Shown in pieces: positions 23,765-62,292 of a stretch of DNA of 64,000 nt. Numbering within the stretch: the stretch's first letter is position 1; every line of letters begins with the position of its first letter. Under the pieces are notes generated by a model. It saw only the letters and a program-made list of their open reading frames with translations, was not told where the DNA came from and ran no database searches. The stretch comes from Candidatus Aenigmatarchaeota archaeon. GTDB lineage: Archaea > Aenigmatarchaeota > Aenigmatarchaeia > CG10238-14 > SCSR01. Where the stretch lies: assembly GCA_038998335.1 (NCBI GenBank), contig JAVZHQ010000001.1, positions 96,001 to 160,000 on the forward strand, in the 5' to 3' direction. Position numbers and translations under genes: made by a program.

Positions 23765-24604
23765 ATGAAATTTAATCAAAGCTTAGCGACTATTCACGCA
23801 TACTTATGCGCAGATGGTTATGTAATAACCAATCCACCTACTCAAAAGCATAAATATTATTATATTGGTTTAAGAAATACGAACGAAATAATTTTACAAG
23901 ATTTTCAAAAGAATTTTGAAAGGGCATTTGGAATAAAACCAATAATTACAAAAGAAAAAGATAGATGCAAAATTCAAAATAAAAATTTATTTTTAAAACT
24001 CACAAAAAACTTTTCATTTTACTCAGATAAGTGGACCATGCCAAAGCTTTCATTAAAAGGATTAAGGTGTTGGTTGAGAGCTTTTTTCGACTGTGAAGCA
24101 TGGGTTAATGTTCAGAAAGGTAAAAGTAGAGTAATAGGATTAGAATCTGTTAACAAAAATGGCCTGGAACAAATTAGAAATTCTTTGCTTAAATTTGGGA
24201 TTAAGGTATCTAATGTAAAAAAAAGGAAGAATAGGAATATTTGGTATATTTACATTTGTGGTAAGGAAAATCTTCTAAAATTCAAAGAAAATATTGGATT
24301 TTTACACCCAAATAAAAACAAAAAACTCTTAGAAGCTATTAATTCATATATAAATTACGAATGGTTGATACCAAGTGAAAGAGAAGAATTTATCAAATTT
24401 GTGAATGATAAAGGGAAGTTAAGAAATGATACAAAAGAAGTTAGATTCTTTTCAATCATCAAAGATAATTTAATAAGATTAAAAGAAGAGTTAATAAAGT
24501 ATGGTATTGATGCAAGGATGTATGGTCCCTGGAAAAATAATAGGGGAAGAATTTATTATTGTTTATCTTTTAAGCAAAAAGAATTAATTAAATTAAGGAG
24601 GTGA
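23765..24604 (+). CDS. Free-standing LAGLIDADG homing-endonuclease-like protein
   Basis: Two LAGLIDADG-like helices IHAYLCADG and WLRAFFDCEA; FKENIGFLHPNK; no intein splice residues; TTTAAATA box about 25 nt upstream; GTGA overlap with rtcB. Confidence 0.85.
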   Translation: MKFNQSLATIHAYLCADGYVITNPPTQKHKYYYIGLRNTNEIILQDFQKNFERAFGIKPIITKEKDRCKIQNKNLFLKLTKNFSFYSDKWTMPKLSLKGLRCWLRAFFDCEAWVNVQKGKSRVIGLESVNKNGLEQIRNSLLKFGIKVSNVKKRKNRNIWYIYICGKENLLKFKENIGFLHPNKNKKLLEAINSYINYEWLIPSEREEFIKFVNDKGKLRNDTKEVRFFSIIKDNLIRLKEELIKYGIDARMYGPWKNNRGRIYYCLSFKQKELIKLRR

Positions 24605-26076
24605 GAAAGATAAGGCTTAAAGAAAGGTTAAGAAAAATTGGCCCTTGTCTATGGGAATTACCAAGGGAAACAAAGCCGGGAATGAAAGTACCAGCATGGC
24701 TTTTCTTGTCAGAAAAGCTTTTAAGTCAAGTAGAAGAGGGAGCGATAGAGCAGGCAGCCAATGTAGCTTTCTTACCAGGAATTTACAAGCATAGTATAGC
24801 ACTCCCTGATATGCATTTCGGCTATAGCTTATAAAGCGGCTAAGGATTTCCTATCGGGGGGGTTGCAGCTTTAGATTATAAAGAAGGCGGCTTAAGTCCA
24901 GGAGGTATAGGCTTTGATATCAATTGTGGCGTAAGACTTTTGCGTACAAACCTAACATTAGAGCAAGTAAAACCAAAACTTAAGGAATTGCTAGAATCAA
25001 TTTTCCATAACGTTCCTTCTGGTGTTGGCGAAGTTGGAAAAATTAAGCTAAGCTTTTCTGAGCTAGATGAAGTTTTAGTCAATGGAGCAAGATGGGCCGT
25101 TGAAAAAGGTTACGGAACCGAAAAGGATTTGGAGCACTTGGAAGAGCAGGGTTGCATGAAAGGTGCAAACCCAGAAAAAGTTTCTAACGAAGCAAAAAAG
25201 AGAGGAGCTCCTCAGCTTGGTACTCTAGGAGCAGGAAATCATTTTCTTGAAATTCAAATTGTGAATAAAATATTTTTACCAGAAGTTGCGAAAGTTTTTG
25301 GAATAGAAAAGGAAAATCAGATTTGCGTGATGATCCATACCGGAAGTCGTGGATTTGGTCATCAAGTTTGTACTGATTATTTAAGAATTTTGGAATCTAG
25401 GTTTAGAGATGAGCTAAGAAAATTACCTGACCGCGAGCTAGTTTATGCTCCTGCTGGAACTCAAGAATGTGAAGATTATTTTTCTGCAATGGTTTGTGCT
25501 GCAAACTATGCTTGGACTAATAGGCAAATGATTGCTCATTGGGTAAGGGAAAGTTTTGTAAAAGTTTTAGGAATGAAATTGGAAGATATAGGCTTGGAAA
25601 CAGTTTATGATGTGGCTCATAACATAGGGAAAATAGAAGAGCATGAAATAGACGGAAAAAAAGTTAAGGTTTATGTTCATAGAAAAGGTGCTACAAGAGC
25701 ATTTCCTCCTGGGCATCCAGAAATCCCAAGAGATCATCAAAAAGTAGGGCAATGCGTACTTATTCCAGCTAGCATGGCTACCCCTAGCTTCGTTTTAGTT
25801 GGAGCAGAAACCGCAAAAGAAACATTTTACTCTACTGCCCATGGCTCCGGGCGTGTAGAGTCCAGAACAAAAGCACTTAAGCAGATTAGAGGCGAAGAAG
25901 TCTTAAGACAATTGCAACAAAAAGGTATACTAGCTAAGGCCGCCAGCATGAAAGTTCTCGCTGAAGAGAGGCCAGAAGCTTATAAGCTATCGACAGAAGT
26001 TGTAAAAGCAACAGAAGAAGCAGGCATAAGTAAGCGTGTAGTAGAATTGTGGCCTTTAGCTGTGATGAAGGGTTAA
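24601..26076 (+). CDS. rtcB: tRNA-splicing ligase RtcB, join(24601..24825,24844..26076), 485 aa after intron removal
   Basis: ORF-track pieces 24601-24834 and 24940-26076 are in one frame; removing 24826-24843 gives LPDMHFGYGFPIGG...GFDINCGVR, QLGTLGAGNHFLE, HTGSRGFGHQ, HRKGATRAF, HGSGR. Confidence 0.95.
24826..24843 (+). other. 18-nt bulge-helix-bulge (BHB) intron in rtcB mRNA
   Basis: AGCTTATAAAGCGGCTAA with two in-frame TAA; central helix GGCU(24820-23)/GGCU(24838-41), bulges AU^A and AA^G, intron hairpin GCUU-AUA-AAGC, exon stem 24802-11/24852-61. Confidence 0.9.
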
Positions 26077-26245: not shown

Positions 26246-26524
26246 ATGCTCTCTCAAATACCTTTTGAACTTGAGAAAATAAAGAAAGAAGACTTGGAAA
26301 AAGAAATAGCAAGAGTTGGGATGATAGCAGAGCTAGATGCTATAAATTTATACGAGCAACTAGCAGCTGTTTGTGAAGATCAAAAAATGAAGAAAGTCTT
26401 GCTGGATATAGCAAAAGAAGAGAAAACTCATCTCGGCGAGTTTCAAGCCTTGCTTTTAGAAAAAGATGAAGAGCAACAAGAAGAATTGAAAAAAGGAAAA
26501 GAGGAAGTTGAAGAGTTAAGCTAA
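26246..26524 (+). CDS. Ferritin-like protein (rubrerythrin / encapsulin-cargo Flp type)
   Basis: AELDAINLYEQLA...DIAKEEKTHLGEF di-iron ligands; GGTGA RBS. Confidence 0.85.
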   Translation: MLSQIPFELEKIKKEDLEKEIARVGMIAELDAINLYEQLAAVCEDQKMKKVLLDIAKEEKTHLGEFQALLLEKDEEQQEELKKGKEEVEELS

Positions 26525-26937
26525 ATGTCAAGAATAACTTTTGCTTTCCAAACTTTATTTTTTTTAATTTTTAGCTGGTGATAGGTACAAGCTTTAACGT
26601 GCGTTCTAGTTTCATGCTTATTCTTATCTATGGTTTCGCCTTTGCAAATAGCTTCTAGCTTAAATTTTTTCTCATTAACTTTTACCGAAAATTCAGAAAA
26701 AGCTAAGTTTTCCGAATCAACAAAAACTAGCAAATAATTTAGCCAGTTAAACATTAAAGATTCTAAGTCTGAACCTTCGACCTCAACTTTTCTTTCAATT
26801 TTTGTTTCTATTTGCTTAGTGTTAACCATTACTTCAAACATTGCTAAGGCTGCATTTTCAAACAACTCGTTCAAATCTTTACCATAAGCTTCAAAGGCTA
26901 TGTCTGCTGTTGTTATGTCCAAAAACTTAAACTTCAT
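26521..26937 (-). CDS. Archease (RtcB activator)
   Basis: FLDITTADIAFEAYG, FENAA.AMF, VKACTYH, VILDI. Confidence 0.93.
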   Translation of the reverse strand: MKFKFLDITTADIAFEAYGKDLNELFENAALAMFEVMVNTKQIETKIERKVEVEGSDLESLMFNWLNYLLVFVDSENLAFSEFSVKVNEKKFKLEAICKGETIDKNKHETRTHVKACTYHQLKIKKNKVWKAKVILDI

Positions 26938-26992: not shown

Positions 26993-28129
26993 TTGGTAAT
27001 CATGGAAAGAATACCGAAAGCTTTGTTAGAAGTAGAAAATTATATGAAAGTTAACCTTATAGAAACTTTTGGAATTCCTAAGGAAAACGAGCAAATGGGT
27101 TTAGCTATAGAGGAATACTTAAGCAGGGGAGGAAAATACCTTAGGCCAGGTTTGGTTTGGTCGACAGTTAAAGCATATGAAGTAAGAAAACCAGAAGATT
27201 CCATCTGGGCAGCGATTTCATTAAGCTTCGATCATAACTGGTTTTTGATTCACGATGATATAGAAGACAATTCAAGGCTAAGAAGAGGAAAGCCTTGTTT
27301 ACACATACTTTATGGAATAGATAATGCAATAAATTATGGCGATTACTTAAGAACTTTAGCAGAAATGGCTTTGGAAAAAGGAAAGAAAAATTGGGGGCTT
27401 AAAACTTATTCAAAACTTATTTCTGCAAGACAGGAAATGCTTAAAACAACTTGTGAAGGACAAGACTTAGAGTTTGTCTTAAGGAAAAAACCTTTGAGAG
27501 AAACTACAGAAGAAAAAGTTTTTAAAATCCTAGAGAAAAAGTCAGCTTTCTACACAGTATTTACACCTTACCGCTACGGAGCAATAATTTCAGGAGTAAA
27601 TGATAAGGAAATAGAAGAGCTTAAGCCTGCTTTAATGAAAATAGGAATTGCTTTTCAGATTCAGGATGATGTTCTTGATTTAACAGTAGAGAAAGAACAA
27701 GAAAAAGGTGAAGCTACTTTAAAAGCTCAAAAGTTTGGAAAGGATTGGGCAGGGGATTTGGAGGAAATGAAAAGAACTTTGCTGATAGCAAAAGTTTTAG
27801 AAAAAGCTGATAGCGAAGACAAAAAATACTTGCTAAGAATGTTGGATAATGAGGGAAGGATGAAAAGGCTTGTAGCTATGAGAGATTCTTTAAAAGATAA
27901 AGGTCTGGAAAATTCCTCTCAATATAGAAAAGTTCAAGGAAGAATTGATGAAATTAAGCTAAAAGTCATAGAAATCATGAATAAGTATAGTGTGATAGAT
28001 GAGGCAAAAGAAAAAGCAAAAGAGCTTTATGAGCAAGGAATAGTAAAAGTAGAGGAAGCTTTACCTGCTACTGAAGGAAAAAAAGATGTTTTAGATTTGT
28101 TAAAGTTTGCAGTGTTTAGGCACTTCTAG
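26993..28129 (+). CDS. Polyprenyl diphosphate synthase (GGPP synthase-like)
   Basis: GGKYLRP, LIHDDIED...RRGKP, GQDLE, AFQIQDDVLD. Confidence 0.9.
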   Translation: MVIMERIPKALLEVENYMKVNLIETFGIPKENEQMGLAIEEYLSRGGKYLRPGLVWSTVKAYEVRKPEDSIWAAISLSFDHNWFLIHDDIEDNSRLRRGKPCLHILYGIDNAINYGDYLRTLAEMALEKGKKNWGLKTYSKLISARQEMLKTTCEGQDLEFVLRKKPLRETTEEKVFKILEKKSAFYTVFTPYRYGAIISGVNDKEIEELKPALMKIGIAFQIQDDVLDLTVEKEQEKGEATLKAQKFGKDWAGDLEEMKRTLLIAKVLEKADSEDKKYLLRMLDNEGRMKRLVAMRDSLKDKGLENSSQYRKVQGRIDEIKLKVIEIMNKYSVIDEAKEKAKELYEQGIVKVEEALPATEGKKDVLDLLKFAVFRHF

Positions 28130-28143
28130 AAAAGCTTATAAGT
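28129..28143 (+). promoter_or_regulatory. Putative BRE/TATA promoter of the 28166 RNA
   Basis: GAAAAGC-TTATAAG about 25 nt upstream of the first paired base at 28166. Confidence 0.5.
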
Positions 28144-28165: not shown

Positions 28166-28269
28166 GTAGTTAAGGAGGAAGTTTAGAATTCAGTAGCTAA
28201 CAGCTACGCTTTCCTTGGCTTATAAAAAGCTGAGGAAAGTCAAAAATTCTAAACCTCGAACTTAACTAC
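28166..28269 (+). ncRNA. Unknown structured RNA closed by a BHB motif
   Basis: 9-bp stem, GAGG/CCUC central helix with AAG and GAA bulges, 9-bp inner stem, two hairpins (6 bp; 14 bp with three G-U pairs favouring + strand). Confidence 0.75.
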
Positions 28270-28319
28270 GAAAAATTTAAAAAATTATCTTTTTTTATTA
28301 GAAAACCTAACTTAATAGT

Positions 28320-62034: not shown

Positions 62035-62292
62035 GGCGTGCTAGCCATAGCCCCTCTTATGTTTTGGTAGCATTTGTCTAAGCGTTTCAAACTTGCATCC
62101 CAGGCCTACCAGACCGTTTCATCCTTTTAGCCTCAACTCAGCTTTCGCATCATGGTTAGCGAAGCTAAAAGGTCTCGTTTCTGATTCTGGTAGAGGCTTC
62201 TCAGCCTGCTGCTTAAGCAGCACCTTAAGGGATGGAGGGAACTTCCTCAGCTTTGCTTTGATGCAAAGCCGAAGCTACCTGGCTAGCTCGCC
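62035..62292 (-). ncRNA. rnpB: RNase P RNA
   Basis: GC-rich island; - strand GGCGAGCUAGCC...GAGGAAGUUCCCUCC...AGAAAC...UGAAACGG...GCAAG...AAACAUAAGAGGGGCUA...GGCUAGCACGCC; TATA about 25 nt upstream. Confidence 0.92.

Follow-up and report, generated by a model that had tools for sequence, protein, structure and literature searches.

A conserved small RNA gene beside archease in Aenigmatarchaeota, with a predicted bulge–helix–bulge closing stem and a possible circular product

Introduction

Bulge–helix–bulge (BHB) cleavage and RtcB ligation process tRNAs and rRNAs as well as a single SRP RNA and a small number of mRNAs, and to our knowledge all of the known cases repair or rearrange a familiar RNA. 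Could such a motif also close a free-standing RNA gene, of which the excised piece is the product? This question is raised by positions 28166–28269 of the window (the whole stretch of DNA that was analysed, 64,000 nt, from a Candidatus Aenigmatarchaeota archaeon), where the first-pass annotation had proposed an intergenic RNA that is excised as a 79-nt circle. As defined in PMC5829648, a BHB has two 3-nt bulges with a helix of 4 bp between them. Full-text literature searches found no description of this RNA or of any archease-linked RNA. In this study, the fold, relatives, gene neighbourhood and probable processing of the element were analysed computationally.

Results

Structure of the element

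Sequence inspection bore out the earlier structural description of 28166–28269 base for base; the elements on the plus strand, with what is predicted from the geometry and from RNAfold, are listed below.

28136–28141, plus strand: TATA-like box (TTATAA), 25–30 nt 5′ of the first paired base of the RNA
28166–28174, plus strand: 5′ strand of the outer helix (GUAGUUAAG); with 28175–28180, the predicted 5′ "exon"
28175–28178, plus strand: 5′ strand of the central 4-bp BHB helix (GAGG), partner of 28254–28257
28179–28181, plus strand: 5′ bulge (AAG), with the predicted cut 3′ of 28180
28181–28259, plus strand: predicted excised and circularised RNA of 79 nt, deduced from the BHB geometry
28182–28190, plus strand: 5′ strand of the inner helix (UUUAGAAUU), pairing with 28245–28253
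28193–28207, plus strand: hairpin 1 (GUAGCU-AAC-AGCUAC), 6 bp, from RNAfold
28208–28240, plus strand: hairpin 2, 14 bp with loop AUAAA and three G-U pairs, from RNAfold
28241–28244, plus strand: junction strand (CAAA) from hairpin 2 to the inner helix, of CAAA/CAAG type in the alignments
28245–28253, plus strand: 3′ strand of the 9-bp inner helix (AAUUCUAAA)
28254–28257, plus strand: 3′ strand of the central 4-bp BHB helix (CCUC), partner of 28175–28178
28258–28260, plus strand: 3′ bulge (GAA), with the predicted cut 3′ of 28259
28261–28269, plus strand: 3′ strand of the 9-bp outer helix (CUUAACUAC), the predicted 3′ "exon"
28290–28296, plus strand: run of seven T, a likely terminator from the sequence

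The folding energy was −45.7 kcal/mol, against a mean of −18.6 kcal/mol (s.d. 3.05) for shuffled sequences (z = −8.89), and none of the 200 shuffles equalled it; RNAfold recovered both stems, outer and inner, as well as the two hairpins and the three-way junction. The minus strand folded slightly more weakly (−43.0 kcal/mol). The preference for the plus strand, argued earlier from the three G-U pairs, was reinforced by the first covariance model (R1), which scored about 113 bits on the plus strand and 28 bits on the minus strand. In the BHB region itself, the minimum-energy fold was a 3 × 3 internal loop followed by 2 bp and a 1 × 1 loop, not a BHB; the BHB pairing reached −43.2 kcal/mol and was thus 2.5 kcal/mol less stable. 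Low G+C content sets the RNA apart from the other stable RNAs of its genome: 36.5% for the RNA and 33.1% for the genome, compared with 50–64% for the 5S, SRP, RNase P and tRNA genes. To judge from its sequence, fold and conservation, 28166–28269 is an independent, single-copy small RNA gene on the plus strand.

Comparison with known RNA classes

The locus matched no known family in Rfam, a search that had been named beforehand as a way to refute the idea of a new RNA. With Rfam 15 at gathering level, the sole match in the window was an archaeal RNase P RNA (62036–62291, minus strand, 137 bits); around the locus, with E up to 10, no credible match and no tRNA match appeared, and ARAGORN found no tRNA gene in the window. 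The earlier statement that the element is not a tRNA, 5S RNA, SRP RNA or C/D guide therefore held in the Rfam, ARAGORN and box-motif checks. A tRNA, including a permuted or split one, was rejected because the RNA has three arms rather than a cloverleaf and lacks a T-loop, in addition to the negative ARAGORN and Rfam results. The 5S, SRP and RNase P RNAs were rejected because Rfam was negative at the locus and the genome carries its copies elsewhere (5S at C2:106158–106274, SRP RNA at C1:640751–641034 and the RNase P RNA given above); the 16S and 23S genes also lie elsewhere. In this genome (G000), the 16S (C1:407647–409193) and 23S (412614–415875) genes are 3.4 kb apart, and the gap between them (C1:409194–412613) holds a tRNA-Ala gene and, on the opposite strand, three ORFs (151, 268 and 244 aa) without a Pfam match.

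The C/D box consensus comprises a C box (RUGAUGA) and a D box (CUGA) joined by terminal pairing. No UGAUGA occurs in 28166–28269, and the sole CUGA lies within the non-conserved hairpin 2, so that a C/D box sRNA was dismissed. As a separate observation, several tRNA introns of the genome (e.g. C1:504696–504833 and 785187–785307) hold C/D-box-like motifs (AUGAUGA ... CUGA); tRNA-Trp introns of Euryarchaeota are guide RNAs with such motifs. A K-turn was discarded because no tandem G-A pairs stand beside a 3-nt bulge in the sequence. The analogy with Ro and Y RNA was dropped as well, as no TROVE/Ro protein (PF05731) was found in the 90%-complete genome, while control genomes gave matches.

A MITE or another dispersed repeat, which would have occurred in many copies, did not fit: a full-length match occurred only once in this genome, the remaining hits spanning 14–46 nt, and no flanking repeats were seen. 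Being present in one copy, the RNA is not a repeat, and the relatives likewise hold one locus per genome, apart from the variant RNAs of genome G016.

Conservation and covariation

Relatives were initially found by BLAST, and R1 was built from 10 sequences. The search of related genomes with a covariance model, proposed in the first-pass annotation, recovered the RNA from 26 of the 70 genomes of the same Aenigmatarchaeota family, at essentially one locus per genome. The remaining 44 gave no match with the covariance model; archease is present in 59 of the 70. When the region upstream of archease was searched in 20 genomes without the RNA (E up to 1, filters off), no diverged RNA was found. A second covariance model gave no match in 48 genomes from six other families of the order, and in a phylum sample of 151 genomes its sole match outside the family was genome G201, from another family. 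An IUPAC motif scan of bacteria and archaea, with one genome per species, returned 15 matches, all in Candidatus Aenigmatarchaeota or uncultured archaeon MAGs. As far as these searches reach, the element is a new small non-coding RNA family, so far found only in Aenigmatarchaeota. Missing from many relatives, the RNA is dispensable, and this patchy presence, like its low G+C content, speaks against a classical stable RNA.

The 26-sequence alignment had 95.5% of 673 cells paired, with changes on both sides in 22 of 29 pairs. None of 500 shuffled alignments matched this pairing and covariation, and slid controls were 28–48% paired. Its conservation in relatives, where compensatory changes occur, places the element far beyond chance. 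Changes on both sides were seen in all 10 pairs of the outer helix (25 distinct homologs), in eight of nine pairs of the inner helix and in four of six pairs of hairpin 1. Hairpin 2 is the most variable part, being a long hairpin in every homolog with a different sequence in almost every genus and, in most relatives, a UUCG-type loop.

The flanking signals recur too. The TATA-like box noted earlier is kept across relatives, as a regular expression located such a motif 18–34 nt upstream at 21 of the 26 homologous loci; at two more (L033 and L031) it missed a TTATAA that was recognised by eye. At least five consecutive T occur within 40 nt downstream at 18 of the 26 loci.

Geometry of the motif and predicted cut sites

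The element has the canonical hBHBh′ features, namely two 3-nt bulges on opposite strands, a 4-bp central helix and 9-bp flanking helices. The earlier reading of a BHB in the closing stem was upheld by this geometry, for the 3-nt/4-bp/3-nt layout is kept at the same place in 23 of 24 homologs of the hairpin-1 type. The 5′ bulge, 3 nt long in 23 of these 24, varies in its letters among homologs (AAG, AUG, UUG, UAG). The 3′ bulge is 3 nt in all 24 (GAA, GUA, GCA, ACA, AAA, AAG, AGA), and its third letter is A in all but one homolog. In G201, from the other family, the geometry is kept with GGGG:CCUC and the bulges CAG and GAA, while the outer and inner helices are different. L047 has a mismatch within the central helix.

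Hardly any variation is seen in the central helix, G(A/G)GG:CCUC, and 99% of its cells are paired. Its sole change, A to G giving a G-U pair, occurs in five of 25 sequences and no change on both sides was seen, so that covariation cannot prove the BHB pairing. Geometry and sequence are conserved together, and the count of 23 in 24 is thus not independent of sequence conservation. Nevertheless, the non-BHB pairing fits the alignment slightly worse: its pair 17–132 fails in three of 25 sequences (70 of 73 cells kept), whereas pair 14–132 of the BHB pairing is kept in all 25 (20 A-U and five G-U).

Five variant RNAs (L051, L054, L057, L058 and L132) are shorter, lack hairpin 1 and have either 2 or 4 nt in the 5′ bulge. 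These were found at G048:C6:14337–14423 (L051), G016:C29:95–187 (L054), G023:C29 (L057), G069:C7 (L058) and G016:C26:208239–208332 (L132). They have a similar closing stem and CCUC strand, one internal hairpin and their own TATA-like box and T run, and by these traits may be a sister family.

In a genome-wide scan for the strict arrangement helix, 3-nt bulge, 4 bp, 3-nt bulge, helix (excised length 15–300 nt, G-U allowed), the 1.0-Mb genome gave 949 matches, among which the element ranked first by Watson–Crick pairs (22; next 19). The second-best candidate (C1:543527–543618) overlaps a gene start, folds weakly (−17.2 kcal/mol) and was set down to chance. Two intron-bearing tRNAs of the same genome supply a cutting rule, as the 37/38 introns of tRNA-Leu(UAA) (C1:785187–785307) and tRNA-Ser(CGA) (C1:504696–504833) are bounded after the second base of each bulge. 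This rule agrees with the cut positions proposed earlier; applied here, it places the cuts at AA^G (after 28180) and GA^A (after 28259) and predicts a 79-nt piece. The predicted excised piece is 71–87 nt long in homologs. Folded as a circle, the 79-nt piece keeps the three-way junction, and a new stem of 10 bp, closed by a CUCGA loop, forms across the ligation junction, whose predicted sequence is ...UCUAAACCUCGA/GUUUAGAAUU... (the slash marks the ligation point).

Linkage to archease

Two genes of the RNA-ligation pathway lie on the upstream side of the element.

24601–26076, plus strand: rtcB (RNA ligase), interrupted by an 18-nt insert at 24826–24843
26521–26937, minus strand: archease (Pfam PF01951, 157.8 bits), 1.2 kb upstream of the RNA

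Archease is described in PMC4090602 as the factor that enables RtcB to turn over. In 21 of the 26 RNA-bearing genomes archease is encoded on the same contig as the RNA, at a distance of at most 1.6 kb, and in 20 it is divergent. Nine genomes have no ORF between the RNA and archease, with gaps of 62–269 nt; in the remaining linked genomes one or two unrelated genes intervene, the one at this locus encoding a polyprenyl synthase. Of the five genomes without the linkage, three have the RNA at most 250 nt from a contig end. Archease was also upstream and divergent at 13 of 16 further metagenome loci. The linkage is absent in G020, G201 and metagenome locus L128, and the variant RNAs are not adjacent to archease.

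By gene order, archease is the most stable neighbour of the RNA family. The label "orphan" in the first-pass annotation, in which archease was missed, was therefore wrong, as the RNA belongs to a conserved family with this stable neighbour. By the gene maps, the pilus operon downstream is not a conserved neighbour either, and only 10 of 21 maps have rtcB at a distance of 5 kb or less. Genes downstream of the RNA differ between genera in identity and strand, so that the RNA serves an adjacent gene neither as leader nor as terminator. Since the RNA gene is kept beside archease, mostly in divergent orientation, the RNA and the ligase cofactor are probably expressed together.

Some other features of the neighbourhood were recorded. 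A 92-aa ORF resembling EncFtn or rubrerythrin (26246–26524) stands between rtcB and archease and recurs there in six of 21 gene maps. A free-standing LAGLIDADG_3 ORF (23765–24604, 279 aa; PF14528, 84 bits) ends 4 nt inside the rtcB start, and AAGGAGGTG precedes the rtcB GTG start codon.

Splicing machinery and inserts in rtcB

The genome encodes one EndA of 188 aa with both the N- and the C-terminal Pfam domains, i.e. a single alpha subunit, and ARAGORN found several intron-bearing tRNAs, whose introns are AU-rich, as is the RNA. The tRNA BHB central helices of the genome are CUUA:UAGG and CUCG:UGAG, which indicates that GAGG:CCUC is not required by EndA.

The insert in rtcB at 24826–24843 is in-frame, contains two stop codons and separates ...PDMHFGY from GFPIGGV... 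Short inserts that break the rtcB frame are present in three RNA-carrying genera: besides the 18 nt of G000, G012 has 27 nt at this site, and an insert of 20 nt in G074 lies four bases further downstream. In six of the nine RNA-bearing loci examined rtcB is uninterrupted. The G000 insert can be drawn by eye as a BHB-like structure with GGCU:GGCU, bulges AUA and AAG and an inner GCUU-AUA-AAGC hairpin (4 bp), the outer helix being weak at only 2 bp. The inserts suggest that this lineage uses BHB splicing on an mRNA, and the mRNA of the RNA ligase may itself need ligation to be made. This raises the prior for the RNA gene, and on the genomic evidence BHB use looks widened in this lineage. The likeness earlier noted between the tip of hairpin 2 and the rtcB insert hairpin is a coincidence, given that hairpin 2 is highly variable and that in G012 it has nothing in common with the insert.

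Transcription data and target searches

Four public RNA runs gave no read on the RNA; three of them were raw-read hot-spring runs sampled at 3–5%, with no reads of the organism on the stretch, and the result therefore speaks neither for nor against transcription. One sediment metatranscriptome contig covers only 28040–28072, inside the upstream gene. The back-junction motif had no match in metagenome contigs, which rarely hold 79-nt circles, and this result is thus not evidence against the circle.

A 21-nt perfect match to 28235–28255 was found at C1:410363–410383 of G000, antisense within a 268-aa ORF that has no Pfam match and is present in only six of the 70 genomes. Similar matches of the 21-nt type in five other genomes fall in unrelated genes, one of them a synthetase-like ORF with a KISKS motif, and the match in G001 has a mismatch. 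This trans target was rejected as a codon-usage coincidence, since the matches all encode GLEFL on the other strand. Of 550 long ORFs, only 36 are preceded by GAGG, and Shine–Dalgarno mimicry by the RNA is pure speculation.

Discussion

A predicted pathway and its alternatives

We lean towards the explanation that EndA cuts the precursor and that RtcB and archease ligate it into the 79-nt circle 28181–28259. From sequence features we infer transcription, cleavage, circularisation and any function. A primary transcript of about 104 nt would start about 25 nt after the TATA-like box and end at the T run, and its ends would pair into a long stem containing the canonical BHB. The single alpha-type EndA would cut after the second base of each bulge, RtcB with archease would close the inner piece into the circle, and the two "exons" would either be joined to a 25-nt hairpin or be left unjoined. 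The letters flanking the predicted ligation junction are near-invariant (CUAAA-CCUC-RN/G-UUUAG). As they are not needed by EndA, we regard the junction hairpin, which only ligation would make, as the candidate functional part of the circle.

A linear structured RNA that is never cut is possible, if on balance doubtful. The invariant GGAGGAAG/CCUCGNAC would then be an internal-loop site for protein binding or RNA pairing that resembles a BHB by chance, and the RNA, expressed together with archease, would act as a regulator or as part of an RNP. The stability advantage of the 3 × 3 loop over the BHB points this way, as does a sequence conservation of the region that far exceeds what EndA needs; the empty searches for back-junction matches and for reads on the RNA in the sampled runs are compatible with it. 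The variant RNAs also point this way, as they keep the closing stem and CCUC but have bulges of 2 or 4 nt, which should escape a strict alpha4-type enzyme (PMC5829648). Such a site, however, would not explain why the bulges stay 3 nt long and are spaced by exactly 4 bp although their letters change; furthermore, the alternative pairing loses its pair in the three sequences mentioned above, the region is not a K-turn, and the linkage is to a ligation cofactor and not to an RNA-binding protein. It is very unlikely that the BHB is cut with incidental products only, the RNA being a decoy or gauge substrate from a promoter region shared with archease that buffers or reports the EndA/RtcB capacity also governing the interrupted rtcB mRNA. 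The conserved divergent pairing with archease, the BHB-like mini-inserts of rtcB in the three RNA-carrying genera and the AU-rich composition, which resembles that of tRNA introns and differs from that of stable RNAs, accord with such a role. The idea is purely inferential, however; rtcB is uninterrupted at six of nine RNA-bearing loci, and a mere substrate needs neither invariant letters nor a conserved three-way junction.

BHB-closed precursors give rise to permuted tRNAs and to the SRP RNA of Thermoproteus (PMC3978253, PMC4731332), and on this precedent the element might be a disrupted known RNA (a permuted or split tRNA, or an rRNA spacer relic); otherwise it might be a mobile element (MITE). 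ARAGORN found no tRNA-Met, tRNA-Asp or tRNA-Gln in the 90%-complete genome, so that disrupted tRNA genes may remain undetected there. We nevertheless hold this explanation to be extremely improbable, given a three-armed circle with no cloverleaf or T-loop, the negative ARAGORN and Rfam results, one copy per genome at a fixed position beside archease with no flanking repeats, and the loss of hairpin 1 in some relatives.

Returning to cleavage and circularisation, the circle could be the product of a dedicated circular RNA gene, back-to-back with archease, that acts in trans and feeds back on the RNA-ligation pathway, but we consider this unlikely. In such a scheme, ligation would make the conserved CCUC-RN-G hairpin loop, which would be present in no linear form, and the exposed CCUC of the circle might, for example, pair with ribosome-binding sites of the GAGG type, among them the AAGGAGG before rtcB; the feedback would operate in a lineage whose rtcB mRNA also needs the pathway for splicing.

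If cleavage and circularisation occur as predicted, the locus would be a free-standing conserved gene whose excised piece is the product and which is genetically tied to the ligase cofactor, that is, a natural "circular RNA gene" in archaea. Together with the rtcB mini-inserts, the RNA suggests that in Aenigmatarchaeota the splicing machinery has come to serve more than tRNA. With a transcript of 104 nt and three small proteins, the locus offers a small substrate open to testing, and it raises the questions of what role stable BHB circles have and for what reason archease would be co-regulated with the RNA.

Comparison with known systems

Bacterial rsr–Y RNA–rtcB loci hold a small structured RNA, with a long stem formed by its ends, beside RtcB ligation genes, and the present locus resembles them in having a stem-closed RNA beside genes of the RtcB system. 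In contrast to those loci, no Ro/TROVE protein and no tRNA-like module are found here, and the link is to archease and not to rtcB (within 5 kb in the 10 of 21 maps). We know of no Y RNA that is a BHB substrate.

The circularly permuted SRP RNA of Thermoproteus (PMC4731332) and circular pre-rRNA intermediates resemble the predicted transcript, each being a separately transcribed non-coding RNA with a BHB at its termini, from which cutting and ligation yield the functional topology. Those are universal RNAs that were rearranged, whereas in this genome the SRP, 5S, 16S, 23S and RNase P RNAs are normal and lie elsewhere, and the predicted 79-nt product matches no known RNA family in Rfam.

Circular intron products, of which metazoan tricRNAs are the eukaryotic analogue, offer a further comparison. 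The BHB introns of archaeal tRNAs and rRNAs have the same motif, with two 3-nt bulges 4 bp apart and flanking helices, as described in PMC5829648. The enzymes are the same as well, as EndA, RtcB and archease are all encoded in this genome; the excised piece would be expected to be circularised, and the tRNA introns of the genome share the AU-rich composition of the RNA. Unlike those introns, the RNA has no host gene, its "exons" being a 9-bp helix plus GAGGAA/A (25 nt when joined), and the unit has a promoter and a terminator of its own, to judge from the TATA-like box and the T run. The conserved structure of the RNA lies in its inner part and not in the exons.
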